From Bryobacterales bacterium (lineage in GTDB: Bacteria; Acidobacteriota; Terriglobia; Bryobacterales; UBA6623), in NCBI GenBank assembly GCA_965248205.1, contig CBDFIS010000006.1:3337149-3401148 (forward strand): a stretch of 64,000 bases of DNA. The letters are read 5' to 3'. A program made the position numbers and the translations under genes. The number at the start of each line of letters is the position of its first letter. Positions within the stretch are counted from its first letter, which is position 1. Below the pieces are notes generated by a model. That model did not search any database and was not told the origin of the DNA. It saw only the letters and a program-made list of their open reading frames with translations. Shown here piece after piece: positions 7,644 through 62,950 of the stretch.

Positions 7644-8035
7644 GCCGCAATACCGTTCACTTAAGCTGTAATAGAACCCCGAGTTTTTTCCGCATTGCAC
7701 CGTTTGTCATGTACCGGCGCGACATGTTGCGCTCTGGACAAGCGGGATCGCTTGTCCCTACTTGAGTCGTCACAAGCCGCGGCAGTAGGGACCGGCGATC
7801 TCGCCGGTCCGGGGTCCGACACATCGCCCCACAGACTCCTCCGGGGCCTGTTCGCTTGTGCATACGGACCCCCGGTTTTGCTGCAGCATGTGTGGGAGCT
7901 GTGTCGCCCTCTCCGGGGCTTTCCGCACTGCCACTTTTCCCCACGGCTGAAGCCGTGAGCTGTGATTGTTGCGGCCCCCTGACGGGGCCAGACTCGTGGT
8001 TCATCTGCCACTGATTGGGGTGATATATAGTAACT

Positions 8036-9364
8036 CAGTGCTGTCCGGGGAAAGTCGCGCCATCGGACGGTAAGTCTCGACCGTTCAATGTCTTATGGCC
8101 TGTTTTGCCCGGGAACGATTTGAAATCCCGAGGCCGCAAATGGTCGCCTGAACGGAGCATCCGGACGCGGCACAATGAGGGATGAACCTTGGCCGTACGG
8201 TTTTCTCCCAACTGATCGAGCACCTACCGAGCAAAGAGTTTCAGAAATGTGTATCGCGCTACCGCGGCGATTCCTATCTGAAAAGTTTCTCCTGCTGGGA
8301 TCAGTTTCTTGCGATGGCATTCGCCCAGCTGACCTATCGGGCAAGCCTCCGCGACATCGAGACGTGCCTGCGTTCGATGCACGGCAAACTCTACCACATG
8401 GGATTCCGCGGCAGGGTAGCGCGCTCGACACTGGCCGACGCGAACGAGTCGCGCGACTGGCGGATCTACGCGGACTTCGCGCAGGTCTTGATTGGCATGG
8501 CACGGCCGTTATATGCCCACGACCCGATCGGTGTGGACTTGGACCAGACTCTGTACGCTCTCGACTCGACAACAATCGACCTCTGCCTGTCGCTGTTTCC
8601 GTGGGCGAGATTCCGCAAGCAAAAAGCCGCCGTGAAGATGCACACGCTGCTGGATCTGCACGGCAATATTCCCACGTTCATCCGCATTACTGGAGGCAAA
8701 GTGCACGACATCAACATCCTCGACGAGATCGGCCCGGAGGCCGGCGCGTTCTACGTCATGGATCGGGCCTACGTCGATTTCGAACGCCTCTTCGTGTTCA
8801 CTCTCTGCTCGTCGTTCTTCGTCGTGCGAACCAAGAAGAACATCTTGCTCCAACGGCGCTACTCGCATCCCGTCGACAAATCCACGGGCTTGCGCTCGGA
8901 TCAGACCGTCATACTGGCTGCCATCGAATCGGCCCAAGCCTATCCCGACCCGTTGCGGAGGGTCAGTTACTTCGACGCCCGGACGAACAAGCGGCTGAAG
9001 TTTCTGACCAACAACTTCGCGCTCCCGGCGCTGACCATCGCCCACATCTACAAGTCGCGTTGGCAGATTGAGTTGTTCTTCAAGTGGATCAAGCAACATC
9101 TGCGAATCAACTCGTTTTACGGCACCAGCGAGAACGCCGTCAAGACGCAGATCTGGATCGCTGTCTCGATTTACGTGCTCATCGCCATCGTCCGGAAACG
9201 CCTCGGGCTGGAAGCGAGTCTTTACCAGATTCTACAGATTCTCAGCGTTACGCAATTCGAAAAAATGCCCCTTTTACAGGCACTCCAGCCATCCGACTCC
9301 CCAAACGAATCCCCCTATGACCCCAACCAATTGATTCTATTCGACTTTTAACCGGACAGCAGTG
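8036..9364 (+). mobile_element. IS4-family insertion sequence, copy 1 (1329 bp), 9-bp target duplication ATAGTAACT
   Basis: Terminal IRs cagtgctgtccgg / ccggacagcagtg. Flanking direct repeats at 8027-8035 and 9365-9373. ORF content is identical to the copies at 55411 and 61552. Confidence 0.9.
8182..9351 (+). CDS. IS4-family DDE transposase
   Basis: The N-terminus FSQLIEHLP...[25 protein letters not shown] is typical of the DUF4372 + DDE_Tnp_1 class. The Y-2-R-3-E-6-K signature is present in [15 protein letters not shown]. Confidence 0.9.
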   Translation: MNLGRTVFSQLIEHLPSKEFQKCVSRYRGDSYLKSFSCWDQFLAMAFAQLTYRASLRDIETCLRSMHGKLYHMGFRGRVARSTLADANESRDWRIYADFAQVLIGMARPLYAHDPIGVDLDQTLYALDSTTIDLCLSLFPWARFRKQKAAVKMHTLLDLHGNIPTFIRITGGKVHDINILDEIGPEAGAFYVMDRAYVDFERLFVFTLCSSFFVVRTKKNILLQRRYSHPVDKSTGLRSDQTVILAAIESAQAYPDPLRRVSYFDARTNKRLKFLTNNFALPALTIAHIYKSRWQIELFFKWIKQHLRINSFYGTSENAVKTQIWIAVSIYVLIAIVRKRLGLEASLYQILQILSVTQFEKMPLLQALQPSDSPNESPYDPNQLILFDF

Positions 9365-30416: not shown

Positions 30417-31681
30417 AGACACTAACGTATCTAGGCCTTGAAAGTTATGTTCTGATGTGGCACAGTGGCACGAGGGAGGTTACCCCACGTGCCTCGCAAA
30501 AGCCCTTACCACATCGTGCTCTCTTCCGCCGAAGCCCGTGAGTTACAGCGCCGTGCCTCGAAGTATACGTTATCGTATTTTCAGGTCGTTCGGGCCCAGA
30601 TGATCTTGCTTGCCGCCCAGGGCCTTTCCAACCAGGAGATCGCCCGCCGTCTGCGGACACGACGCGAGGTCGTCTGCCTGTGGCGCAAACGTTTCTACCA
30701 GCAACGTCTCGAGGGTCTCGAAGAGCGTCCGCGGTCCGGTCGGCCACGGGCCTTTCCCCCCGGAGCTGGTCGTCGAGATCAAGGCACTAGCCTGTGAACT
30801 TCCCGCCAGCCAAGACCGCCCCCTGTCTCGTTGGAGCAGCGGGGAACTGGCCCGCTATGCCTGCCAGGCTGGACTGGTGGCCAGCTTGTCGGGTAGCACC
30901 GTCTGGCGCTGGCTCCACGAAGACGCCATCCGCCCCTGGCAGCATCGCAGTTGGATCTTCCCTCGCGATCCGGATTTCGCCACCAAGGCGGGGCGTATCT
31001 TGGATCTCTACGAGCGGCAGTGGGACGGCAAGCCCCTTAGCTGCGATGAGTTCGTGCTTTCGGCCGACGAGAAGACCAGTATCCAAGCACGCCGTCGCAA
31101 GCACGCCACTCACCCCCCGCGATCCAGATCGGCCATGAAGGTGGAACATGAGTACGAACGATGTGGGGCGTGGGCCTACCTCGCTGCACTCGATGTTCAG
31201 CGTGCCAAACTCTTCGGTCGTTGCGAGTCGAAAACGGGCATCGAACCTTTTGACCGCTTGGTGGAGCAAGTCATGTCTCAACCCCCCTATGACCAGGCCC
31301 GCCGGGTGTTCTGGATCGTTGACAACGGCTCGGCGCATCGGGGCCAACGGTCGATCGTCCGTTTGAAGCAGAAGCATCCCACCCTGGTATTGGTGCACGG
31401 GCCAGTGCACGCCAGTTGGCTCAATCAAATTGAAATCTACTTTTCGATCTTGCAGCGCAAGGCCCTCACCCCCAATGATTTCGCATCGCTCGCGGCGGTG
31501 GAAGACCGCCTGTTGAGCTTCCAGCAACACTACGAGTCGATTGCGAGACCATTTGAATGGAAGTTCACTCGACGCGATCTGACCGATCTATTGCACAAGA
31601 TAAAAAGACAGCCCCACAACTCGACTCCGCTCGCCGCATAGCTGAAAATAATACGTGACCGTACTTACGAAACGGTGTACT
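30400..31681 (+). mobile_element. IS630-family insertion sequence (1282 bp) with TA target duplication
   Basis: The ends agtacacaatttc... and the reverse complement of the other end agtacaccgtttc... form imperfect IRs of about 30 bp. TA lies at 30398-30399 and 31682-31683. Confidence 0.75.
30465..31641 (+). CDS. IS630-family transposase encoded in two frames (orfA frame 30465-30797, orfB frame reported by the track as 30610-31641) joined at a C6 run
   Basis: HTH part (LSNQEIARRLRTRREVVCLWRKRF) in frame A. DDE part (ADEKTSIQAR...WIVDNGSAH...ASWLNQIEIYFS) in frame B. Frame A ends ...RPRAFPPGAG and frame B reads ...FPPELVVEIK. Removing one C from 30756-30761 gives one continuous ORF of about 391 aa. 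Confidence 0.8.
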
Positions 31682-33586: not shown

Positions 33587-34663
33587 GTGTCTCAGTGTAT
33601 GGTCACACAGCCGTCAGTATGGGAGGTAACCCCTGAGGTAGAGCAGGTGCGCGACCATCTGCGGCACTACTATGGCCGCCACCTAAAGAAAAGCTCTGAC
33701 CTAAGCCAAAAAGCTTGCTGCACGGAAGAGACGGAGAAACGCCACGCCGAGATCCTCGAGTTGATTCCCGAGGAGGTAAAGCAGCGGCACTACGGCTGCG
33801 GATGTCCCATTCCCGACGATGAACTCAGCGGCCTCACCGTGTTGGACCTCGGATCCGGTGCAGGCGTGGACGCCTTTATCATGGCCCACAAGGTGGGCCC
33901 CGGTGGCTTCGTTCACGGCATCGACATGACCGAGGAACAACTCGCGATCGCCGGCCAGTATGCCCCCGAAGTGGCACGCCGGTTCGGCTATCGCCGTCCG
34001 AACACGGCCTTTCACAAGGACTTCATCGAAGTGGCCGAATCGATCCCGGACGAAAGCATTGACCTCGTGATTTCGGACTGCGTCATTAACCTCTCGCCTC
34101 GCAAAGACCTTGTCTTCGAGACGATTCACAGGGTTCTCAGGAATGGTGGCGAATTCTATATTTCCGACATTGCCGCTGACCGCCGCGTGCCTGATACCAT
34201 CCGCGAGGACGAGGAACTCGTCGCGGAGTGCCTGGGTGGCGCGCAATACGAGCACGATTGGTTCGACACGATGAAGGACTGCGGCTTCACAGATCCCCGG
34301 GTTGTGCGCCGAACCATCGTACAAACCGACGCCAAGGGAGAACCGGTCATTTTCTCGTCGCTTACGGTTCGCGGGTTCAAGTTCGGAGGGCCGCTCGATC
34401 GCCGCTGCGAGGACTACGGGCAGGTTGCGGTCTACGACGGAAGTTCACCTGGCTCGCCGGCGCGCTTCCCATTCGACGACCACCACGTTTTCGAAACCGG
34501 TCGTCCAACCGCGGTTTGCCGCAATACCGCGCGCATGCTCACGGAAACCAGGCTAGGAAAGTACTTCAGCGTGACGCCCCCGGTCAAGCATTTCGGGCTG
34601 TTTGCGTGCGGAGTGACAGCGGCGACGGCGGACGGAGCCGCATCTGCCGGCAACTGCTGCTAG
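33587..34663 (+). CDS. arsM: ArsM-like As(III) S-adenosylmethionine methyltransferase
   Basis: N-terminal CC (KACCTEE), HYGCGCPIP, SAM motif VLDLGSGAGVD, DCVINLSP and ECLGGA cysteines in ArsM-like positions, C-terminal CC. The true start is possibly ATG 33599. Confidence 0.7.
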   Translation: MSQCMVTQPSVWEVTPEVEQVRDHLRHYYGRHLKKSSDLSQKACCTEETEKRHAEILELIPEEVKQRHYGCGCPIPDDELSGLTVLDLGSGAGVDAFIMAHKVGPGGFVHGIDMTEEQLAIAGQYAPEVARRFGYRRPNTAFHKDFIEVAESIPDESIDLVISDCVINLSPRKDLVFETIHRVLRNGGEFYISDIAADRRVPDTIREDEELVAECLGGAQYEHDWFDTMKDCGFTDPRVVRRTIVQTDAKGEPVIFSSLTVRGFKFGGPLDRRCEDYGQVAVYDGSSPGSPARFPFDDHHVFETGRPTAVCRNTARMLTETRLGKYFSVTPPVKHFGLFACGVTAATADGAASAGNCC

Positions 34664-34763
34664 GGCAGGCCTCGATCGTTATCGGGTTAGGCGGCCCGCT
34701 GAGCGCATCAGCGGTGTGTTCTGAGTTCTCAACCAGATTCATAGGCTGACGCGAGAAACGTCG

Positions 34764-35813
34764 ATGGTTGCACCGGAGAAAGATCAACTCATCAAAGGGA
34801 TGCTGCAGCACTATCCCTTTGTGGTGAAAAGCTTCAGGGCCTACTTCCGTAACCTCTATCGGCGCAAGGTTCTCAAATCGACGGTCGTTACTCCGTACTC
34901 GGCCATCTTCTACGCGACGCACAAGTGCAACCTCGACTGCAGCTACTGCACCCAAAAGAACCCGGAGGTCTTCAGCGAGGAAGTCTCGACGGAAAAGACG
35001 ATCGACATCTTTCGGGCTATTCGCAGGGACGTTGACACGATGGTGATCACGGGCGGTGAATGCCTGGTGAGGCCTGATATCGAAGAGTTGGTCCGCGCGG
35101 CTCGCCAAGACGTCAAATTCCGATCGCTGCTGGCCGTTACCAACGGTGTGTTGCTTGACTCCCGACGCAGCATTCTCGATCACCTCAGCGGCCTCGTCGT
35201 CAGCCTCGATGCTCTGAAACACGATCCCTCCGAGCCATTGTCGAAATCGAATGCCGTTCCGAAGGTCATCGAGAATCTCATGATGGTGAAGGAGAAGCTG
35301 CCCCCTCAGTCGGTGACGGTTAGCTGTGTACTCGAGCTGTGGAACATCGCGGAAGTTGAAAAGATTGTCGATTTCTGCCGGGAGCATGGCTTCGTTTTCT
35401 CGGTGCAATCGGCGCAGAACAACGGCAAGTACCCCAACTTCGCTTTTCTCCGGGACGACCGTTACCGAGGCTTCGTGGACAAGCTCATCGAACTGCGGCG
35501 ACAACGGGCTGTCAGGATCAACGGGACTCCCAAGCTGTTGCAGACTCTCCTGCTGTTTGAGGAGTTCAAGTGTTACCCGACGATGTTCCCGAGAATCTAC
35601 CCCAACGGAGACATCTTCTACCCGTGCGAGGTGTTGCGTAAGATTGCAGGGAACTTGCTCGAAGACGGCTCGATCGCGGCGGCCTTCGAGAGGGGACGGC
35701 GCTTGTACGGAGAAGTCCCCCAATGCAAGGCGAACTGTTACCTTTTCGGCAACGTCCTATCGTCCTACTACGTGGAGGACTTCTGGGGACTGGCCGGTGA
35801 CACCGTGCGCTAG
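34764..35813 (+). CDS. radical SAM protein with Cys-containing C-terminal (SPASM-like) region
   Basis: ATHKCNLDCSYCTQ (CxxxCxxC), ITGGECLVRPDI, and C-terminal PNGDIFYPC...QCKANC. Confidence 0.75.
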   Translation: MVAPEKDQLIKGMLQHYPFVVKSFRAYFRNLYRRKVLKSTVVTPYSAIFYATHKCNLDCSYCTQKNPEVFSEEVSTEKTIDIFRAIRRDVDTMVITGGECLVRPDIEELVRAARQDVKFRSLLAVTNGVLLDSRRSILDHLSGLVVSLDALKHDPSEPLSKSNAVPKVIENLMMVKEKLPPQSVTVSCVLELWNIAEVEKIVDFCREHGFVFSVQSAQNNGKYPNFAFLRDDRYRGFVDKLIELRRQRAVRINGTPKLLQTLLLFEEFKCYPTMFPRIYPNGDIFYPCEVLRKIAGNLLEDGSIAAAFERGRRLYGEVPQCKANCYLFGNVLSSYYVEDFWGLAGDTVR

Positions 35814-36548
35814 CCGGCGAACGCTGTAAACGGCGTGGGCGGCTGTTTCGGCCAGATGCTTACTAAAAGCTCCTACATATTCGAGATGCAGGTGGTCGCT
35901 GCCAGCCAACTTAAGCTCAAGAGTGGCAGTTGCTGCTTGATCGACTGAGTCCTCGCGAACAGGGGGGTCTTTCGCCTCAGACACATAGACCGGGCGGTAG
36001 GTTTCGCCATTAACGAGGATGCGTGCGATTTGTCGAATCGGAATGATCCAGTGCACGTTTTCAGCTCGGTCACGTGGCACGATGAGCAGTTCATTGCCGC
36101 GCAGCAGCAGATAAAGACGTGTTCCCCTTGCCAGAGGCGGCTCGTCGCGCAAGGTGCCCGAGGCATATACTCCACCGTTAAGTAGGTAATCCGCCTGGTG
36201 GAGTTTCTGCAACTTCCTTTCCCGCTCGGGATCGTAGGCTGGACCGAGCGCCACCACACACAGGAACGCCGTCGCCGCGAATCCGGCCACCCACCAGTAC
36301 GAGGCTGGGACGCTCCAGGCGAGCAATCCTAGAGCACCGAGGCCGATCGCGAACCGAATGCGGTTCCAGTCCGTGCGCCGCCGCCAGCGACGGACGAGCG
36401 GAACGAGCAGCACGAACCAAAACAGGGTGTAGAGCAGAATCCCAATCCATTTGGGAACACCGAAGGGCCGCAACGGATCCTTGGTGGGGCGTTCCCGGAG
36501 AGACGGGCCGGAACGCCGGATTTTGATTCGGGACTCTGGATTACCCAC
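35757..36548 (-). CDS. hypothetical membrane protein
   Basis: Three predicted TM helices near the N-terminus and a soluble C-terminal domain. The 3' end overlaps the convergent radical SAM gene by 57 nt. Confidence 0.5.
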   Translation of the reverse strand: MGNPESRIKIRRSGPSLRERPTKDPLRPFGVPKWIGILLYTLFWFVLLVPLVRRWRRRTDWNRIRFAIGLGALGLLAWSVPASYWWVAGFAATAFLCVVALGPAYDPERERKLQKLHQADYLLNGGVYASGTLRDEPPLARGTRLYLLLRGNELLIVPRDRAENVHWIIPIRQIARILVNGETYRPVYVSEAKDPPVREDSVDQAATATLELKLAGSDHLHLEYVGAFSKHLAETAAHAVYSVRRLAHGVTGQSPEVLHVVGR

Positions 36549-36641
36549 GGCCTGCGAACTCCCTCAAGCGTTGACCTTCAAGAATGAGACAGTAGCGGCA
36601 ACCGATGGAGGCTGTCAATGACCTCCGCGGGCACGCCGGTC

Positions 36642-36738
36642 TGTGAAAAAACCTCGGGACAGCCAACCGCAGCTAAAGACGCCATTGATTCTAAGTGACT
36701 TCTAGGACGCCGCTTGTGCTAGCCCCCGTTTTTTCACA
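36642..36738 (+). repeat. 97-nt dispersed element, family B copy 1, with 11-nt terminal inverted repeat TGTGAAAAAAC / GTTTTTTCACA
   Basis: Aligns end-to-end with 44224-44321 in the same orientation. The central block ccattgattc.aagtgacttctaggacgccgcttgtg is nearly identical. Confidence 0.75.
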
Positions 36739-36816
36739 CACCCGCATGCTGGGGTCGGATTCAAGCGCGAAATCCTAAGCGATGCCACCCGGCCCGTTTG
36801 GCAGATCAGATTCCGC

Positions 36817-36848
36817 TTGACTCTGTAGTTCACTTCAGAGTGTATCCT
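36817..36848 (+). promoter_or_regulatory. MerR-family (ZntR/CadR/PbrR-type) metal-responsive promoter: TTGACT, 20-nt spacer with dyad, TATCCT
   Basis: The -35 is at 36817-36822 and the -10 at 36843-36848. The dyad ACTCTGTAGTT/CACTTCAGAGT lies at 36820-36841. This is a strong architectural match to published MerR-type promoters. Confidence 0.6.
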
Positions 36849-36859
36849 GAGAAAAGGGA

Positions 36860-37246
36860 ATGCGGAAACCGTCGCTCAGACTGGTTGCGCTCTTTACATT
36901 GAGCCAAGTGTGTCTACTTTACGGCGGAGGATTGCTCCTAGCATACGATGAGCGATTCGGAACACAGGGAACGAGCTGTGCTCGCGCCTGTTGCCACCTG
37001 GCAAAAGCGGGATCTCCCTATGCGAAGTCGTGCTGTTCGCTTCGCTGCGGCGAGGACCCCACCGATCCCACACCGGAACCAGCCCGCGCTAAGCAGTGGT
37101 TACCGCCGGGGCTTGCCGGCGTGCAATCAGCGGACCCTCGCCCATACCTTCAAGACGCACTGAGAGGTCAACGTACCGGCCTTGCAGCTCCCGCGGAAGC
37201 TCCTGAGCAGGAGCTTTACCTGAGACATTCCATCCTTCTGGTCTAG
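36860..37246 (+). CDS. small exported or N-terminally anchored Cys-rich protein (CxxxCCH...CCxxxC)
   Basis: Hydrophobic N-terminus LRLVALFTLSQVCLLYGGGLLLA, then TSCARACCHLAKAGSPYAKSCCSLRCGE. First gene after the MerR-type promoter. Confidence 0.55.
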   Translation: MRKPSLRLVALFTLSQVCLLYGGGLLLAYDERFGTQGTSCARACCHLAKAGSPYAKSCCSLRCGEDPTDPTPEPARAKQWLPPGLAGVQSADPRPYLQDALRGQRTGLAAPAEAPEQELYLRHSILLV

Positions 37247-37324
37247 CGCCAAAGCAAGAGAGGTGAGGTGCGTCCAGTTTCGGACGTAACCCCTCGTTGC
37301 GGCGGCTTGCCTTGGAGGATTCGA

Positions 37325-38203
37325 ATGCCTATATCACGACTGTTTCGCTCAGCAATTGCCCTATCCGGGGGTGCGCTGGTGATCTTTGGTTGGTTGCCCA
37401 GAGCCGAAGGCCAGGCGATCCTCGCGCCGGGCGGCCGAACTTTGTTCAACCAGCACGTTCTGGTGCGGTCGTTCACCCGGATTGACCGTCGCACCGTACT
37501 GCGCGACGGCTCAGCGATCGGGACCACGCGCTACATCCAGCCGGTCGCGCTGGTCTACGGCTTCGCCCCAGGGTGGCACGCAACCGCTGTGACACCCTTC
37601 GTGTTCGGGGAGAGCAGCGGTCGCGGCGACTCGCGGTTCTTCGTCAAATACGACGGGCTCATCAAGAAGAATGAGCCGGGCGGGCTCACTCGCCTAGCGG
37701 CCGAGTTCGGGGTGCAAACGCCGACAGGGTCCGAGGGCTTCAGTACCGGGGCGGCGAGCTACCTGGGGGATCTGGTGTTCCTGAAGGCCAGCAAGCAACG
37801 TCATTTCCTCGCCGACGTGCAGTATGAGGCGGCGACCCGAAACAGCGACGGTGTGACGGCGGGAAACCGGGCGCTCTTCGATGTAGCGCTATCCTATCTG
37901 TTCCTGCCGGATTCGGAGAAAAGCCGATCCGGTAAAGGCAAGGGGATAGGCCGGCTCGCTCCGCACGGCGTCTTCGGCATTGTCGAGTTCAATGCCGAGC
38001 TGCGTAACCGAGCACGCGACCGCGCCGGCGCGCTGCCGAATTCCGGCGGGGGACTGCTCTACATCTCTCCAGGGATCCAATATTTCATGAAGCGAAATCT
38101 GATTCTCGAGGTGTCGGTACCCATCCCCGTGGTTCGCAACCTCAACGGCTTGCAACCCAAGCCGCAGACCGGGGTGCTCTTCGGCTTTCGATACGTTCTC
38201 TGA
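37325..38203 (+). CDS. outer-membrane beta-barrel protein (MetA-pathway/transporter-like family)
   Basis: GGAGG lies 7 nt before ATG 37325. Signal peptide MPISRLFRSAIALSGGALVIFGWLPRAEG. Alternating beta-strand pattern with a C-terminal LFGFRYVL. The family assignment is tentative. Confidence 0.6.
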   Translation: MPISRLFRSAIALSGGALVIFGWLPRAEGQAILAPGGRTLFNQHVLVRSFTRIDRRTVLRDGSAIGTTRYIQPVALVYGFAPGWHATAVTPFVFGESSGRGDSRFFVKYDGLIKKNEPGGLTRLAAEFGVQTPTGSEGFSTGAASYLGDLVFLKASKQRHFLADVQYEAATRNSDGVTAGNRALFDVALSYLFLPDSEKSRSGKGKGIGRLAPHGVFGIVEFNAELRNRARDRAGALPNSGGGLLYISPGIQYFMKRNLILEVSVPIPVVRNLNGLQPKPQTGVLFGFRYVL

Positions 38204-38226
38204 GAAACCATTAGGAGGAATACAAC

Positions 38227-38733
38227 ATGGACTGGAAACTGCTTCGGCTCACGGTGCTGGCGCTCAGCACCGTACCGGCCTTTGCGCAGGTGGAGCAGGC
38301 CGTCATTCAAGTTGACGGCATGCATTGACCGCTTTGAGCACACGGGGCCCAAAAGACCCTGCAACGCCTGGATGGCGTTGATCAAGCAACGGTGGACTTC
38401 AAGGCTGGCACGGCGGTTGTTCGGTCGAAGAAGGAGGAGAGCTTCGACCCGGAGAAGGTGCGTGAGTTCCTGAAGAAATCTGGGTTCTCGACTCCAAAAC
38501 TGGAATTGGCGGTTCGGGGCCGTGTGGAGAAATGGAAGGACATGCTTGCGCTTCGGGTGCCCGGGCTTGAGCGGGTGCTCGTCCTCGGTGGTGGGGAGAA
38601 ACTCTCGGAACTGGCCCGACAGGGCCTTCTCAGCCGCGATGTGCGGATCGAGGGCTTTCTCCATCCGCTGCATGGGGAGGAACCAAGCGGGCTGACAGTT
38701 GAGGATTTCGTCGTAGAGGAGCTGGAGCCATGA
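38227..38733 (+). CDS. periplasmic MerP-like heavy-metal-associated (HMA) protein; both CxxC positions are in-frame TGA (putative UxxU selenoprotein); about 85-aa C-terminal extension
   Basis: AGGAGG plus ATG 38227. Signal peptide ...STVPAFA/QVEQ. AVIQVDGMH-TGA(38326)-PL-TGA(38335)-AHGAQKTLQRLDGVDQATVDFKAGTAVV has the HMA fold pattern. The frame is continuous to the stop at 38731-38733. Confidence 0.55.
38362..38380 (+). other. candidate SECIS-like hairpin (7-bp perfect stem CAACGCC/GGCGTTG, loop UGGAU), 24 nt after the second TGA
   Basis: The stem was read directly. An alternative pairing of GCGTTG with CAACG (38387-38391) also exists. Not validated against a SECIS model. Confidence 0.25.
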
Positions 38734-38910
38734 AAGACAGCTCTTGACACGCGACGCTTCGCAATGGGGATCGTCGGAGTGGCAGGTGTTCCAATGCCGG
38801 TAAGCTGTCGCAGAACCGCCTTCGCAGTAGTTACGATCGAAGCGATTAGCTCTTAACCTCCGCATCAAAGAACTGAGCTGATTTCGCCGGCCAAATGGAA
38901 CCACCGAGCT

Positions 38911-40251
38911 TCACTCGCCCAGCTCTTTCTGGAACACCTCTACCAGCCGGCTCGCGTGCCGCTTGACTAGGACCTCTTCTTCGGCTTCGACCATGATTCT
39001 AACGAGCGGTTCGGTTCCCGAGTAGCGGACCAAGACGCGGCCACGATCGCCTAAGTCTTTCTCGCTGGCGGAGACAGCGTCGCGCAACGTGGGAACACCT
39101 TCGAACGGCACCTTTCCCCTGACGCGTATGTTCTCAAGGGTCTGCGGGAAGACGCTTAACTCGCTCGCGAGCTCACTCAACGGCTTGCCCGAGGCCGCAA
39201 GGATCTCCAGCATCATGCGTGCCGTGAGCAACCCGTCGCCCGTCGAGGCGAAGTCGCCGAAGATGATGTGCCCGGATTGCTCGCCGCCCAGGGCCGCGCC
39301 GCTTCGAAGCATCTCTTCCAGAACGTATTTGTCGCCGACTTTCGTGCGGCTCATCCGAATCCCCACCTTCGCGAGCGCCTTCTCTAGCCCCATATTCGCC
39401 ATCACGGTAGTCACGACTAGGCTGCCGGGGAGTCGATCTCGACCAGCAAGGTGGCGACTGGCGAGCAGTAACACGACATCACCGTTTATCAAGTTCCCCT
39501 TTTCATCGACAAACAACGCTCGGTCCGCGTCGCCGTCGAACGCGACGCCAAGATCCGCGCCGCTCTCGGCGACCCGCTGTTGCAGCGTTTCCATATGAAG
39601 CGAACCGCAATCGAGGTTGATGTTTCTTCCGTTCGGCTGGTTCGCCATCATCTCCGCTTTGACGCCCAGCCGGTTGAAGAAAGTGGGGGCCAAGCTCGAA
39701 ACGGCTCCGTTGGCACAATCGACCACGAGCTGGGTTTCGAAACGTGGCGCGGGATCGCCCACGGTTACCAGATGATCGACGTACTTCTCGATGAGGGATC
39801 CATCTGCTTCCAGGGCGCCTCGACGAGGCCGGCAGTTTTCGCTCAACGCGCGGAAGATCGCAGCCTCGACGCGCTCTTCTTCTTCATCGGGCAACTTGTA
39901 TCCGGACGATCCGAAGACCTTGATTCCGTTGTCCGAAAATGCATTGTGCGACGCCGAGATCATTACGCCCCTTACGAAGTCACCCTTCTCTGTCAGATGA
40001 GCGACACCGGCCGTGGGCATGACCCCCCCGAATTTGACGACGACGACGCCGTGCTCGAGTCCGGCGGCCAGTAGCTCCGCGAGTTGCAAGCCGGATTCGC
40101 GGGTGTCCATCCCGATAAGCACTTCGGGCCGCCGGCCCGCGGAAACAGTTTGGGCTAGGGCCAAACCCGCAGCGAAAACGGTTCGATCATCGAGGGGCGG
40201 CTCGCCGGCTCGGCCGCGGATGCCATCGGTGCCGAATAGTTTTCTTGGCAT
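38911..40251 (-). CDS. glmM: phosphoglucosamine mutase
   Basis: LFGTDGIRG, active-site SASHNAFSDNGIK, full-length pattern. Confidence 0.92.
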   Translation of the reverse strand: MPRKLFGTDGIRGRAGEPPLDDRTVFAAGLALAQTVSAGRRPEVLIGMDTRESGLQLAELLAAGLEHGVVVVKFGGVMPTAGVAHLTEKGDFVRGVMISASHNAFSDNGIKVFGSSGYKLPDEEEERVEAAIFRALSENCRPRRGALEADGSLIEKYVDHLVTVGDPAPRFETQLVVDCANGAVSSLAPTFFNRLGVKAEMMANQPNGRNINLDCGSLHMETLQQRVAESGADLGVAFDGDADRALFVDEKGNLINGDVVLLLASRHLAGRDRLPGSLVVTTVMANMGLEKALAKVGIRMSRTKVGDKYVLEEMLRSGAALGGEQSGHIIFGDFASTGDGLLTARMMLEILAASGKPLSELASELSVFPQTLENIRVRGKVPFEGVPTLRDAVSASEKDLGDRGRVLVRYSGTEPLVRIMVEAEEEVLVKRHASRLVEVFQKELGE

Positions 40252-53319: not shown

Positions 53320-55410
53320 CTAACTTGCTGCGAGGATCAGGTTGCCAAATCGATCAACTTCGGCCTGGTAGCCCGGGTGGATCACTGTAGTGGAATCTAA
53401 TTCCACAACAATGGCTGGCCCGTTGAGAACGTGTCCGACCGCCAGCCGATAACGATCATAGATCGGACAATCAACGTAGCCGTCGCTCTCGGCAAAGTAG
53501 ACCGACCGAGTTGCTTTCAGCGCCGAAGCCGGATCCACGGCCCCGCGGTGTGGTTTCAGTTCACGCAGCCGGGGCTTCATGATTTGGCCGATTGCGGTCA
53601 GCCTGAGGTTAACAAACTCGACCGGCTCGCCTGGGGCGCTGAAGCCATAAGCCCGATTATGCTCCTGATGGAACTGCTCCAAAACGCGGCCGATTTCAGC
53701 AGAACTCAGAGGGTTGTGGGGTAACGACAGCGTCAACTCGTGGCTCTGGCCCACGTAGCGCATGTCCACCTGCCGCTGAAAGCTCATCTCTTCAGGCCGA
53801 ACACTCTCGCGCTCCAGCGTAGCTCGTCCCCGCGCCTCCATTTCTTGGTAAGCGCTCTCAGCTGCCGCGCTATCTAACCGGTCGATGCGCTCAATCATGG
53901 TCGTCGAGTAGTCATGCTTAAGATCGGTGACCAGCAAGCCCAAGGCCGAGGTGGTGCCAGGGCTCATTGGGATGATCGTGGTCGGTATGTCGGTTTCCAT
54001 TGCCAGACGATTGGCGTGAGCCGGTCCGGCCCCGCCGAAAGCCATCAGCACGAAATCTCTGGGATCGTAGCCTCGCTGGATCGAAACCAGGCGCAGGGCA
54101 TTGACCATGGCGGCATTGGCAATCTCGACAATGCCATGGGCTGCCTCTACCCCATCCATCCCCAATGGATCGGCGCACTGTTGCTTAATCGCCCGCCGGG
54201 CAGCTTCGACATCCAATTCGATCTCGCCACCCAAGAAAAGGTCTGGGCTGAGGCGTCCCAGAACCAGGTTAGCGTCGGTAACGGTTGGCTCAGCGCCGCC
54301 CTTGCCGTAGCAGACCGGACCAGGATCGGCGCCTGCGCTTTGGGGGCCCACGCGCAAGATGCCACCGGGATCGACCCAGGCGACGGAGCCGCCGCCGGCA
54401 CCGATCTCCACTAGATCAATGACGGGCGTCCGGATTGGATAACCTGCTCCCCGATGGGAGCCCACCCCGGCCCTGGCCGCTGCCCCAACTTCATAATCCT
54501 TGGTCACCTTTGGCGCCCCGTTCTGGATGAGGCCAACCTTGGCTGTGGTTCCCCCCATATCGAAGGCGATAATGTCCCCGTAGCCGAGGTTGTTGCCCAG
54601 ATAGGCCGCCGCAATAACGCCCGCCGCTGGGCCCGACTCTACCATGAAGACCGGTTTTCGGCTCGCTTCAGCAAAGGTAAAGACCCCGCCGCTGCTCTGC
54701 ATCAAGAGCAATTCTGCCACCAGTCCCTCGTCTCGGAGCCGCTTCTCGATCCGCTCCAGATAGCGGGCCACCAGGGGCCGGATGCTGGCATTAATTACGG
54801 TGGTGCTCGCCCGAAAGTATTCCCGAAACTCCGGGGCCACCTCGGAGGAAAGCGAAATGATGGCCTCCGGGAAGACTTCCCGGATGATCTCTCCGACGCG
54901 TTTTTCGTGATCCGGATTCGCGTAGGTGTGTAGCAAGCAGACGGCGACCGAGGCCACCGCCTCGTGGCGTAGTTGCTCCGCTACGCTCCGCACGGCGGCT
55001 TCGTCGAGCGGCGTCAAGACTTGCCCTTGGGCATCCAACCGTTCGGGGACACCAAAACAAAGGTAGCGAGGGACTAGCGGTTTCGGCTTCTCAAATTGCA
55101 GGTCATACAAGCTCGGCCGGACTTGTCGAGCGATCTCCAGCATGTCACGGAAGCGATCGGTCGTAACGAATGCCGTCCGAGCAAGCCTGCCTTCAATGAT
55201 GGAATTGGTGGCGACCGTGGTGCCGTGAACCACGTAGGACACCTCGGCCGGCGCGACGTTGTTCTCGCGCAAAATCCGATGCGTACTTTCCATAAAACCC
55301 ACAGATGGGTCCTGGGGCGTGGAGGAAACTTTGCCAATGCGGATCTCCCCCGTATCCTCATTGATCAGGGTCGCATCGGTGAACGTGCCGCCAATGTCTA
55401 TGCCCAGCCT
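53320..55410 (-). CDS. hyuA: hydantoinase/oxoprolinase A-subunit family protein (HyuA-like); 5' end abuts the IS4 copy and lacks a canonical start
   Basis: The reading frame continues upstream of the track start (55302) as RLGIDIGGTFTDATLINEDTG..., the ATPase phosphate-1 motif, right up to the IS boundary at 55410/55411. Confidence 0.75.
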   Translation of the reverse strand, partial: RLGIDIGGTFTDATLINEDTGEIRIGKVSSTPQDPSVGFMESTHRILRENNVAPAEVSYVVHGTTVATNSIIEGRLARTAFVTTDRFRDMLEIARQVRPSLYDLQFEKPKPLVPRYLCFGVPERLDAQGQVLTPLDEAAVRSVAEQLRHEAVASVAVCLLHTYANPDHEKRVGEIIREVFPEAIISLSSEVAPEFREYFRASTTVINASIRPLVARYLERIEKRLRDEGLVAELLLMQSSGGVFTFAEASRKPVFMVESGPAAGVIAAAYLGNNLGYGDIIAFDMGGTTAKVGLIQNGAPKVTKDYEVGAAARAGVGSHRGAGYPIRTPVIDLVEIGAGGGSVAWVDPGGILRVGPQSAGADPGPVCYGKGGAEPTVTDANLVLGRLSPDLFLGGEIELDVEAARRAIKQQCADPLGMDGVEAAHGIVEIANAAMVNALRLVSIQRGYDPRDFVLMAFGGAGPAHANRLAMETDIPTTIIPMSPGTTSALGLLVTDLKHDYSTTMIERIDRLDSAAAESAYQEMEARGRATLERESVRPEEMSFQRQVDMRYVGQSHELTLSLPHNPLSSAEIGRVLEQFHQEHNRAYGFSAPGEPVEFVNLRLTAIGQIMKPRLRELKPHRGAVDPASALKATRSVYFAESDGYVDCPIYDRYRLAVGHVLNGPAIVVELDSTTVIHPGYQAEVDRFGNLILAAS

Positions 55411-56739
55411 CAGTGCTGTCCGGGGAAAGTCGCGCCATCGGACGGTAAGTCTCGACCGTTCAATGTCTTATGGCCTGTTTTGCCCGGGAACGATTTGAAA
55501 TCCCGAGGCCGCAAATGGTCGCCTGAACGGAGCATCCGGACGCGGCACAATGAGGGATGAACCTTGGCCGTACGGTTTTCTCCCAACTGATCGAGCACCT
55601 ACCGAGCAAAGAGTTTCAGAAATGTGTATCGCGCTACCGCGGCGATTCCTATCTGAAAAGTTTCTCCTGCTGGGATCAGTTTCTTGCGATGGCATTCGCC
55701 CAGCTGACCTATCGGGCAAGCCTCCGCGACATCGAGACGTGCCTGCGTTCGATGCACGGCAAACTCTACCACATGGGATTCCGCGGCAGGGTAGCGCGCT
55801 CGACACTGGCCGACGCGAACGAGTCGCGCGACTGGCGGATCTACGCGGACTTCGCGCAGGTCTTGATTGGCATGGCACGGCCGTTATATGCCCACGACCC
55901 GATCGGTGTGGACTTGGACCAGACTCTGTACGCTCTCGACTCGACAACAATCGACCTCTGCCTGTCGCTGTTTCCGTGGGCGAGATTCCGCAAGCAAAAA
56001 GCCGCCGTGAAGATGCACACGCTGCTGGATCTGCACGGCAATATTCCCACGTTCATCCGCATTACTGGAGGCAAAGTGCACGACATCAACATCCTCGACG
56101 AGATCGGCCCGGAGGCCGGCGCGTTCTACGTCATGGATCGGGCCTACGTCGATTTCGAACGCCTCTTCGTGTTCACTCTCTGCTCGTCGTTCTTCGTCGT
56201 GCGAACCAAGAAGAACATCTTGCTCCAACGGCGCTACTCGCATCCCGTCGACAAATCCACGGGCTTGCGCTCGGATCAGACCGTCATACTGGCTGCCATC
56301 GAATCGGCCCAAGCCTATCCCGACCCGTTGCGGAGGGTCAGTTACTTCGACGCCCGGACGAACAAGCGGCTGAAGTTTCTGACCAACAACTTCGCGCTCC
56401 CGGCGCTGACCATCGCCCACATCTACAAGTCGCGTTGGCAGATTGAGTTGTTCTTCAAGTGGATCAAGCAACATCTGCGAATCAACTCGTTTTACGGCAC
56501 CAGCGAGAACGCCGTCAAGACGCAGATCTGGATCGCTGTCTCGATTTACGTGCTCATCGCCATCGTCCGGAAACGCCTCGGGCTGGAAGCGAGTCTTTAC
56601 CAGATTCTACAGATTCTCAGCGTTACGCAATTCGAAAAAATGCCCCTTTTACAGGCACTCCAGCCATCCGACTCCCCAAACGAATCCCCCTATGACCCCA
56701 ACCAATTGATTCTATTCGACTTTTAACCGGACAGCAGTG
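55411..56739 (+). mobile_element. IS4-family insertion sequence, copy 2, 9-bp target duplication GCCCAGCCT
   Basis: Direct repeats at 55402-55410 and 56740-56748. Same ends and ORFs as copy 1. Confidence 0.9.
55557..56726 (+). CDS. IS4-family DDE transposase
   Basis: Protein identical to 8182-9351. Confidence 0.9.
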   Translation: MNLGRTVFSQLIEHLPSKEFQKCVSRYRGDSYLKSFSCWDQFLAMAFAQLTYRASLRDIETCLRSMHGKLYHMGFRGRVARSTLADANESRDWRIYADFAQVLIGMARPLYAHDPIGVDLDQTLYALDSTTIDLCLSLFPWARFRKQKAAVKMHTLLDLHGNIPTFIRITGGKVHDINILDEIGPEAGAFYVMDRAYVDFERLFVFTLCSSFFVVRTKKNILLQRRYSHPVDKSTGLRSDQTVILAAIESAQAYPDPLRRVSYFDARTNKRLKFLTNNFALPALTIAHIYKSRWQIELFFKWIKQHLRINSFYGTSENAVKTQIWIAVSIYVLIAIVRKRLGLEASLYQILQILSVTQFEKMPLLQALQPSDSPNESPYDPNQLILFDF

Positions 56740-56746
56740 GCCCAGC

Positions 56747-60779: not shown

Positions 60780-61568
60780 ATGCGGGTTCGGCTTTCATTT
60801 GGCAAAAAGGCACGGTTGACACCAACGACGGCCACCGAGAGCTCTGATCGGGGTGAGCCGCTTCCCCCCAACGGGGCCGTGATCCGCACTCAGGACTTGT
60901 GGAAGACGTATTTGATGGGCGAGGAACGGATTCACGCCGTCCAGGCCGTGAATCTCGAGATCCAGAAAGGTGAATACGTCGCCATCATGGGACCGTCGGG
61001 TTCGGGCAAGTCGACTTTGATGAACCTGATCGGCTGCCTCGACACACCAACCACGGGGCAGTATCACATTTCCGGCCACCCGGTTAGCGATCTGGACGAC
61101 GATGAACTGGCGAGGATTCGCAACGAAGAAATTGGTTTCGTATTCCAGACCTTCAATTTACTGCCGCGCTTGTCGGCGATTCAGAACGTGGAACTACCGC
61201 TTGTTTACGCCGGAGCGCCCCCCGCCGACCGCCTGGAGCGTGCCCGTCACGCCTTGATGCAGGTGGACTTGCTCGACCGGATGGACCACAAACCGAATGA
61301 GCTTTCCGGGGGTCAGAGACAGCGCGTGGCCATCGCCAGGGCGCTTGTCAACGGGCCCTCGATACTACTAGCCGACGAACCGACGGGGAACCTCGACAGC
61401 GGGACAAGCACGGAAATCCTCGATCTGTTTGATCGCCTGCACGCACAGGGCAATACCATCATCATCGTGACCCACGAGATGGACGTTGCGAAGCACACTC
61501 GACGTGTTATCCGCCTGCGCGACGGCATGGTGGAGAAAGATGAGAGAACTCCACTGCTGTCCGGTTAA
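60780..61568 (+). CDS. ABC transporter ATP-binding protein (MacB/LolD-type); last codons supplied by the IS4 copy
   Basis: Walker [11 protein letters not shown]-loop, signature LSGGQRQR, Walker [10 protein letters not shown]-loop THE. The C-terminus ...[11 protein letters not shown] crosses the IS boundary at 61551/61552. Confidence 0.85.
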
Positions 61569-62880
61569 AAGTCGAATAGAATCAATTGGTTGGGGTCATA
61601 GGGGGATTCGTTTGGGGAGTCGGATGGCTGGAGTGCCTGTAAAAGGGGCATTTTTTCGAATTGCGTAACGCTGAGAATCTGTAGAATCTGGTAAAGACTC
61701 GCTTCCAGCCCGAGGCGTTTCCGGACGATGGCGATGAGCACGTAAATCGAGACAGCGATCCAGATCTGCGTCTTGACGGCGTTCTCGCTGGTGCCGTAAA
61801 ACGAGTTGATTCGCAGATGTTGCTTGATCCACTTGAAGAACAACTCAATCTGCCAACGCGACTTGTAGATGTGGGCGATGGTCAGCGCCGGGAGCGCGAA
61901 GTTGTTGGTCAGAAACTTCAGCCGCTTGTTCGTCCGGGCGTCGAAGTAACTGACCCTCCGCAACGGGTCGGGATAGGCTTGGGCCGATTCGATGGCAGCC
62001 AGTATGACGGTCTGATCCGAGCGCAAGCCCGTGGATTTGTCGACGGGATGCGAGTAGCGCCGTTGGAGCAAGATGTTCTTCTTGGTTCGCACGACGAAGA
62101 ACGACGAGCAGAGAGTGAACACGAAGAGGCGTTCGAAATCGACGTAGGCCCGATCCATGACGTAGAACGCGCCGGCCTCCGGGCCGATCTCGTCGAGGAT
62201 GTTGATGTCGTGCACTTTGCCTCCAGTAATGCGGATGAACGTGGGAATATTGCCGTGCAGATCCAGCAGCGTGTGCATCTTCACGGCGGCTTTTTGCTTG
62301 CGGAATCTCGCCCACGGAAACAGCGACAGGCAGAGGTCGATTGTTGTCGAGTCGAGAGCGTACAGAGTCTGGTCCAAGTCCACACCGATCGGGTCGTGGG
62401 CATATAACGGCCGTGCCATGCCAATCAAGACCTGCGCGAAGTCCGCGTAGATCCGCCAGTCGCGCGACTCGTTCGCGTCGGCCAGTGTCGAGCGCGCTAC
62501 CCTGCCGCGGAATCCCATGTGGTAGAGTTTGCCGTGCATCGAACGCAGGCACGTCTCGATGTCGCGGAGGCTTGCCCGATAGGTCAGCTGGGCGAATGCC
62601 ATCGCAAGAAACTGATCCCAGCAGGAGAAACTTTTCAGATAGGAATCGCCGCGGTAGCGCGATACACATTTCTGAAACTCTTTGCTCGGTAGGTGCTCGA
62701 TCAGTTGGGAGAAAACCGTACGGCCAAGGTTCATCCCTCATTGTGCCGCGTCCGGATGCTCCGTTCAGGCGACCATTTGCGGCCTCGGGATTTCAAATCG
62801 TTCCCGGGCAAAACAGGCCATAAGACATTGAACGGTCGAGACTTACCGTCCGATGGCGCGACTTTCCCCGGACAGCACTG
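61552..62880 (-). mobile_element. IS4-family insertion sequence, copy 3 (inverted), 9-bp target duplication AGAGAACTC
   Basis: Direct repeats at 61543-61551 and 62881-62889. Same ends and ORFs as copies 1 and 2. Confidence 0.9.
61565..62734 (-). CDS. IS4-family DDE transposase
   Basis: Protein identical to 8182-9351. Confidence 0.9.
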
Positions 62881-62950
62881 AGAGAACTCATTAAGCCGGG
62901 GGGCGGCGGCGGGTTTGAAAGGCTGTTGCACGGCAATCGAAGGCAACCCT

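Follow-up and report, generated by a model that had tools for sequence, protein, structure and literature searches.

Which kind of promoter precedes a three-gene operon (36860-38733) in the genome of a Bryobacterales bacterium, and which regulator and metal would control it? The question concerns a stretch of 64,000 nt (assembly GCA_965248205.1, contig CBDFIS010000006.1, positions 3,337,149 to 3,401,148), hereafter called the window. Regulatory genetics is almost lacking for Bryobacterales (Acidobacteriota), a lineage of soils and sediments. The original prediction read the site directly upstream of the operon as a metal-responsive promoter of the MerR/ZntR type. The present analysis indicates that the site is probably a MerR-family-dependent promoter controlling the three-gene envelope operon. 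The MerR-family part of the prediction is supported by the footprint in orthologs, the linkage to MerR genes in relatives, and the behavior of the operator class in metagenomes. The operon together with its promoter is called the cassette below.

The letters of the window from 36816 to 36848 are CTTGACTCTGTAGTTCACTTCAGAGTGTATCCT. As listed in Table 1, the hexamers TTGACT and TATCCT stand 20 nt apart at the predicted positions, where an ordinary spacer has 16-18 bp and that of a MerR-family promoter 19-20 bp. The operator dyad overlaps the -35 hexamer and fills the spacer. Comparison of the half-sites ACTCTGTAGTT / ACTCTGAAGTG (the second arm is also given as CACTTCAGAGT) confirms the symmetry at 9 of 11 positions that had been claimed, and in the 9-4-9 register the arms are symmetric at 8 of 9 positions. 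The coordinates likewise bear out that the -10 ends 11 nt ahead of the ATG at 36860. An over-long spacer of 19-20 bp holding a dyad is the accepted signature of MerR-family promoters activated by DNA distortion (PMC1526738, PMC3431237, PMC9909328), and the site has every feature of this signature that can be tested on sequence. In the region 36400-39000, a scan for sigma-70 promoters and terminators predicted no sigma-70 promoter with 16-18-nt spacing, and no Rfam match was found.

The arm pattern taken by itself is not very rare. ACTCTG-N10-CAGAGT with at most one mismatch, whose sole match in the window is the operator dyad, was present in 14 of 100 shuffled versions of the window. However, the pattern TTGACN-N20-TANNNT occurs only twice in the window, with a dyad of 8/9 at the 36817 site and 4/9 at the other, and none of 400 composition-matched first-order Markov simulations of the window gave such a site with a dyad of at least 7/9.

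The conservation of the promoter was evaluated over nine distinct genomic loci, which were recovered via homologs of gene 1 in Bryobacterales metagenome-assembled genomes (MAGs); the relatives of the window in GTDB all belong to this order. A second contig with gene 1 (L003) was left out because its promoter is 100% identical to that of the window and is uninformative in this respect. All nine loci keep TTGACY, the 20-nt spacer with the 9-4-9 dyad, TATnnT, and a distance of 8-13 nt to the ATG. With eight loci anchored on TTGAC, the top-base frequency averages 0.86 over the 32-nt promoter, against 0.56 for the preceding 35 nt and 0.62 for the following 13 nt. Within the dyad, conservation falls on the arms CT..aG and CT.caGggT, with free variation at the central 4 nt. 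As judged from this alignment, a promoter that is conserved while its flanks diverge is the footprint expected of a functional operator-promoter. In one genome (L015, 10460-11218), the cassette appears to be decaying, as the outer-membrane barrel gene is truncated to 252 aa and the HMA gene is missing, and the promoter and gene 1 are intact.

The behavior of the operator class was determined by scanning JGI metagenome contigs with TTGACYCTNNNGNNNNCTNNNGGSTKTATNNT, a pattern derived from the Bryobacterales cassette promoters that excludes the AGAGT arm of E. coli. At least 120 sites were obtained, and 113 of those listed had enough flanking DNA to be assessed; the counts that follow hold among the matches listed. 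At 96 of the 113 sites, a MerR-family gene in the same orientation starts no more than 200 nt downstream, and DF and merTP genes often come next; among the complete regulators, 63 of 83 have Cys at all three Hg-MerR ligand positions. The adjacency of MerR-family genes at 96/113 sites makes this sequence class, empirically, a MerR-family operator. Most of the other 17 sites have no nearby homolog of the query proteins. Those that could be identified include L025, which is the cassette itself, a group of three HMA-motif proteins with one member of at least 684 aa, and a possible FAD-dependent reductase, the last two recognized by eye from N-terminal motifs. Many of the merR genes in this set (L016-L135) appear to start only 4-8 nt past the -10, with a mode near 6 under a crude start-codon rule, which suggests that leaderless merR transcripts are common in the operator class.

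In three relatives (L004, L007, and L011), merR, a merTP gene (a merT-HMA fusion), and a DF-family gene adjoin the operon in three different arrangements. These genes come after the cassette on the same strand in L004, before it on the same strand in L007, where the cassette keeps its own promoter, and divergent from it in L011. L011 is the closest relative in GTDB, with 95% identity in gene 1, and it is syntenic with the window, having the same flanking gene for a 263-aa membrane protein. In L011 (8105-10000), a merR-merTP-DF module of ~1.5 kb occupies the place where the window holds just 311 nt of intergenic DNA (36549-36859). The gap can be explained either by a deletion in the lineage of the window or by an insertion in the other lineage.

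The MerR proteins of these three loci carry CCC at the columns of C82, C117, and C126 of the Tn501 protein, which are the three Hg-ligand cysteines, and show the C...C-x8-C pattern of MerR/PbrR and not the CC...H...C pattern of ZntR. Their best PDB matches are 4UA1 (E = 1.4e-29) and 5CRL (E = 6.3e-27), both solved Hg(II)-MerR structures, and CueR, CadR, PbrR, and ZntR all rank below these two. The scores of 137-141 bits are slightly under the cutoff of 150.85 for the NCBIfam MerR equivalog TIGR02051, and the scores against the ZntR models are 116-128 bits, where the cutoffs are 143 and 168. In the relatives, the regulator of the cassette would most plausibly be this three-cysteine MerR beside merTP and the DF-family gene. 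A separate promoter with 20-nt spacing serves each merR operon, reading TTGACCctgtaccatggtacggggttTAAACT in L011, and within each of the three genomes the outer arms of the cassette operator and the merR-operon operator tend to match. Mer structural genes (merT/P, merA) are absent downstream of the promoter in the window; in the relatives, merTP and the DF-family gene lie in the neighboring transcription unit, and a MerA-like reductase was seen only at an unrelated locus (L078).

Among characterized promoters, the site resembles E. coli PzntA most closely. The PzntA sequence quoted in the original prediction is exact, as 5414 of 5426 complete E. coli genomes contain its 33-mer with 100% identity and the other 12 with 95-99% identity. 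The claimed likeness outside the dyad center also holds: 29 of 33 positions are identical, including TTGACT, TATCCT, the 20-bp spacer, and the outer arms ACTCTG...CAGAGT, and all four differences lie in the inner dyad. PzntA has a 22-bp palindrome in a 20-bp spacer (PMC1526738, PMC3431237), and the ZntR consensus ACTCTGGAGTCGACTCCAGAGT, likewise a 22-bp palindrome in a 20-bp spacer (PMC1526738), agrees with the window operator at 18 of 22 positions. However, the genes in the window encode a small Cys-rich protein, an outer-membrane barrel, and an HMA (seleno)protein instead of a P1B ATPase, and no zntA-type P1B ATPase was found as a target. The host is an acidobacterium and not a proteobacterium, and the -10 lies 11 nt from the start codon, whereas 35 nt separate the PzntA 33-mer from the zntA start codon in the one E. 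coli record inspected. The cassette-linked regulators in the relatives lack the ZntR ligands CC...H...C (C79, C114, C115, H119, C124) and score below the ZntR cutoffs. The label "ZntR" is not specifically supported, since no zntA lies downstream and the linked regulators have the C...C-x8-C pattern and are nearest to 4UA1 and 5CRL. In sequence the site is closest to PzntA; it does not serve a zntA gene, and the likeness does not imply regulation by ZntR. The idea that a proteobacterial zntA promoter arrived by horizontal transfer was considered and rejected, because the ortholog promoters vary among themselves as usual and no zntA stands alongside.

The firmicute-type MerR operator (Bacillus MerR, 4UA1) is similar to the site in its 20-bp spacer, its 9-4-9 register, and its arms ACyCTG...CAGrGT; the firmicute 9-4-9 MerR consensus and the ZntR consensus both sit in a 20-bp spacer (PMC1526738). 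The merR-operon promoter of L011 fits this 9-4-9 consensus well (PMC1526738). The window site differs in having G...C (TAG-N4-CT) where the class has C...G (TAC-N4-GTA), in lacking mer genes downstream, and in that the regulator gene is not in the operon. With Tn501/Tn21 PmerT, PpbrA, and PcadA, the site shares the over-long spacer, the dyad between the hexamers, the TTGACT -35, and the mode of activation by DNA distortion expected for the family (PMC3431237, PMC9909328); TTGACT is the -35 in Tn501 PmerT and PpbrA (PMC3431237). The spacers of those promoters are 19 bp, and the Tn501 operator is a 7-4-7 palindrome, TCCGTAC-N4-GTACGGA (PMC1526738), compared with 9-4-9 here.

From the architecture, the conservation, the linkage, and the behavior of the operator class, we infer binding, DNA distortion, inducibility, and a metal for this site, following the mechanism of the family (PMC1526738, PMC3431237, PMC9909328). 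A regulator dimer would sit on the 9-4-9 dyad within the over-long 20-nt spacer. As long as no metal is bound, the two hexamers would be out of phase, and the promoter would be weak or repressed. When a soft metal is bound via the cysteines of the regulator, the spacer would be underwound and kinked, and this distortion would bring TTGACT and TATCCT into the register that the housekeeping sigma factor requires. The transcript would start a few nucleotides before the ATG at 36860 and be a nearly leaderless mRNA, because the start of gene 1 is only 11 nt past the -10. The inducing metal would most likely be Hg(II), which the context favors but does not establish; Zn/Cd/Pb or Cu/Ag are possible.

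The regulator in the genome of the window must presumably be supplied from outside the window. The claim that no MerR-family gene is present in the window is borne out by both searches made: tblastn with four MerR-family queries gave only noise, and a MerR profile search of the six-frame translation recovered none. Weak tblastn matches at ~56.8 kb and ~18.9 kb were rejected as noise, since the profile search did not recover them. At five further ortholog loci, no MerR gene lies within 10 kb and the promoter is nonetheless kept; this favors a trans-acting regulator over a relic. The predicted trans regulation would fit these loci, although no regulator was located among close homologs. Members of the 20 closest MerR clusters, a search that took in close homologs only, were absent from the other cassette contigs without merR.

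Several observations weigh against a MerR-family operator-promoter that controls this operon. The best E-value of the MerR profile in the window was 7.7, compared with ~1e-51 at control loci, and the window's 5.99-Mb contig carries no member of the 20 closest MerR clusters within the same range of close homologs. In L004, L007, and L011, the innermost dyad position of the cassette operator reads ..AG-N4-CT.., whereas that of the merR-operon operator reads ..AC-N4-GT..; because this difference is consistent, the adjacent MerR may not bind the cassette operator. The difference could determine specificity, or it could indicate that two regulators are involved. The metagenome regulators whose operators are nearest to that of the window are a mix of MerR-best and ZntR-best proteins, and the metal is not assignable from the operator because near-identical operators serve both MerR-like and ZntR-like regulators. 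The predicted leader would also measure only ~0-6 nt.

The operon and its control elements are summarized in Table 1.

Table 1. Coordinates of the promoter elements, the three genes, and the candidate RNA hairpins in the window; SECIS, selenocysteine insertion sequence.
Feature	Position	Strand	Remark
-35 hexamer TTGACT	36817..36822	+	read directly; TTGAC invariant in 9/9 ortholog loci
-10 hexamer TATCCT	36843..36848	+	20 nt past the -35; TATnnT position invariant in 9/9 ortholog loci
Operator dyad, 22 bp, ACTCTGTAG-TTCA-CTTCAGAGT (9-4-9)	36820..36841	.	8/9 symmetric
Gene 1, 128-aa protein with N-terminal signal or anchor and Cys cluster	36860..37246	+	start 11 nt past the -10
Gene 2, 292-aa outer-membrane beta-barrel-like protein, Phenol_MetA_deg family	37325..38203	+	PF13557 match
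Gene 3, predicted 168-codon periplasmic HMA-domain protein with ~80-aa C-terminal extension	38227..38733	+	frame through two TGA
Two conserved hairpins, candidate bacterial SECIS	38343..38380	+	directly past the second TGA; seven-ortholog consensus fold

The product of gene 1 has no Pfam or NCBIfam match and no known domain. A word-indexed search gave 12 homologs with 55-96% identity, and the family is very small: in a set of 1.84 billion proteins, only 12 representative clusters reach E <= 0.001. The cysteines C44, C45, C58, C59, and C63 (CC...CC...C) are invariant, and the C-terminus carries an HS-LL-V motif. Gene 2 matches PF13557 with E = 1.9e-4 and 22.0 bits, exactly at the cutoff; its ortholog in L009 is annotated with the same family, and the identity among ortholog loci is 80-94%. 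The gene caller places its start at 37325, and the longest open reading frame (ORF) begins at 37268. No E1-E2 ATPase domain was found in the downstream genes.

Links to metal-transport genes are seen at other loci of the family. In L006, the cassette adjoins a P-type ATPase with CzcCBA, and in L014 (9961-13269), gene 1 and the same MerR-type promoter lead a Cus/Czc-like RND efflux operon. In L136 (6001-12361), a distant gene 1 homolog (P0210) leads an OEP-CusB-CusA operon with no MerR-type promoter upstream, so that this type of promoter is not a universal companion of the gene 1 family. Taken with the Cys cluster and the HMA domain, the links to P-type ATPase and RND genes at these three loci make the operon products look metal-related. 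The RND operons led by members of the gene 1 family contain OEP and a CusB-like protein with a heavy-metal-binding domain.

Gene 3 is split by gene callers into ORFs of 33 and 113 aa, as two TGA codons (38326-38328 and 38335-38337) interrupt its frame. The site that reads GMxCxxC in HMA domains is GMH-TGA-P-L-TGA here, and the translation at the motif is ...VIQVDGMH-U-PL-U-AHG..., where U (candidate selenocysteine, Sec) stands in place of each Cys of CxxC. With U replaced by C, the protein matches the Pfam HMA domain with E = 1.1e-13 and 51.8 bits (cutoff 24.8), the match spanning the motif; it also has a signal peptide. Both TGA codons lie inside one reading frame in five orthologs, and seven orthologs conserve the frame. 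At either position, an ortholog can have Cys instead: L011 has TGA...TGC (U-x-x-C) and L004 has TGC...TGA (C-x-x-U). The best NCBIfam match is NF041115, "UxxU metal-binding (seleno)protein," listed as a predicted two-Sec selenoprotein in a 2026 review (PMC13188914). Against this model, gene 3 scores 40.8 bits, far below the cutoff of 95 for membership. Gene 3 shares the HMA fold signature with NF041115 and with MerP/CopZ HMA proteins and has UxxU for CxxC; compared with NF041115, it adds the signal peptide and a conserved C-terminal extension of ~80 aa and is paired with an outer-membrane barrel.

The candidate SECIS hairpins are CGGGGyC-CAAAr-GACCCUG and CAACGCC-UGGAU-GGCGUUG. No covariation was found in the seven orthologs, because the sequence is nearly invariant, so that the SECIS assignment stands without covariation support, and a single sequence folded alone shows no significant stability (z = -0.87). 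Synonymous sites are under constraint in the stretch of 24 codons that runs from the first TGA, where all seven orthologs use the same codon at 11 of 18 amino-acid-invariant positions; further downstream, they do so at 7 of 45 (Fisher p = 6e-4). With TGA aligned with Cys, a conserved frame, and a hairpin downstream, gene 3 shows the features looked for in a selenoprotein and is probably a diselenol (UxxU) metal-binding protein. A CxxC homolog of gene 3 that carries this C-terminal extension, paired with an outer-membrane barrel of the kind encoded by gene 2, was also observed in an unrelated lineage of lower GC content (L078, 255-1648 and 4645-8000 in site-strand orientation). That pair adjoins a mer-like operon with a small CC membrane protein, merR, a thioredoxin-like gene, merT, an HMA-like stretch, and the MerA-like reductase; the merR, merT, HMA, and DF matches are supported by tblastn, and the other identifications were made by eye from translations.

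Three other explanations of the promoter were weighed. The site may be a MerR-family promoter whose regulator is a ZntR/CadR/PbrR-like paralog sensing Zn, Cd, or Pb and unlinked in every one of these genomes, the neighboring Hg-type MerR of the relatives being merely co-located. This explanation differs from a promoter served by the three-cysteine MerR only in the regulator and the metal, and it draws on the 29/33 identity to PzntA, on the ..AG-N4-CT.. core, which fits the ZntR consensus (PMC1526738), and on the difference between cassette and merR-operon operators at the inner dyad position in 3/3 genomes with both. In addition, one metagenome regulator (L031) is a true ZntR, above both NCBIfam cutoffs, and uses the operator CTGGAGTTAACTCCAG in the same frame, and the P-type ATPase with CzcCBA in L006 and the RND operon in L014 point in the same direction. 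However, no ZntR-like gene was found near any cassette; the linkage that recurs in three independent arrangements is that of MerR with MerTP; most regulators behind the operator class among the matches listed have three cysteines, often with DF and MerTP genes next; and the diselenol HMA protein would point to a very soft metal such as Hg. We consider such a paralog rather unlikely.

It is less probable still, and on balance improbable, that the site is an orphaned relic, i.e., that the genome lost merR-merTP-DF at the syntenic site and that the operator is unbound and the promoter silent or weakly constitutive. The presence of the regulator module between the same flanking genes in L011 but not in the window, and the lack of a MerR gene in the window and of a close ortholog on the contig, would be explained by such a loss. 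But the -35, the -10, the spacing, and 8/9 dyad positions are intact, as are all three downstream frames with both TGA codons, the five other ortholog loci without MerR keep the promoter, and the regulator search took in close homologs only. A chance resemblance, or a palindrome of a regulator from another family overlapping an ordinary promoter, is very improbable: the frequency of the bare arm pattern in shuffled windows would permit it, but the full architecture never arose in the simulations, its phasing is strictly conserved in nine loci, and MerR genes adjoin most of the listed metagenome sites.

With a MerR-family-dependent promoter as the preferred reading, a tentative proposal, possible rather than probable, can be made for the function of the operon. 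The promoter might drive an outer-envelope system, not described before, that handles soft metals and most likely mercury; its parts would be the anchored Cys-rich protein, the outer-membrane barrel, and a UxxU MerP-like periplasmic chaperone. Working ahead of MerTP-type uptake or RND-type efflux, this system might have an accessory role, and in the genome of the window it might be uncoupled from the neighboring merR and controlled in trans. The promoter as such is of modest interest, and its value lies in the operon that it marks, which includes the probable diselenol metal-binding protein; it labels a conserved, largely unannotated, and partly mis-annotated operon as metal-responsive. The preferred reading would extend MerR-type activation by DNA distortion to Bryobacterales and would mean that genes quite unlike zntA can be driven from a promoter almost identical to E. 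coli PzntA. If true, a two-selenocysteine periplasmic HMA protein under MerR-type control would connect selenium use in environmental bacteria with the way they handle mercury or other soft metals, and the operator together with the regulator of a relative could serve as a biosensor part.

The operon ends at the convergent glmM gene, and the gene for the 263-aa membrane protein lies upstream on the opposite strand. Beyond 38733, the sigma-70/terminator scan predicted no terminator on the plus strand. Genes for an ArsM-like methyltransferase and then a radical-SAM protein lie directly upstream of the locus, at 33587-35813 on the plus strand. The ArsM-like protein scores 174 bits on an arsenite methyltransferase model, under the cutoff of 263, and has the C-terminus ...NCC; the two genes may form a metalloid-methylation pair. 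A 1.33-kb repeat is present in three 100% identical copies at 8034-9364, 55409-56740 (direct), and 61551-62882 (inverted); it is presumably an insertion sequence, although in a long-read MAG it could also be an assembly issue. An IS630-like transposase pair (HTH_23/HTH_29, then DDE_3) lies at 30489-31641 on the plus strand, ~5 kb upstream of the locus.

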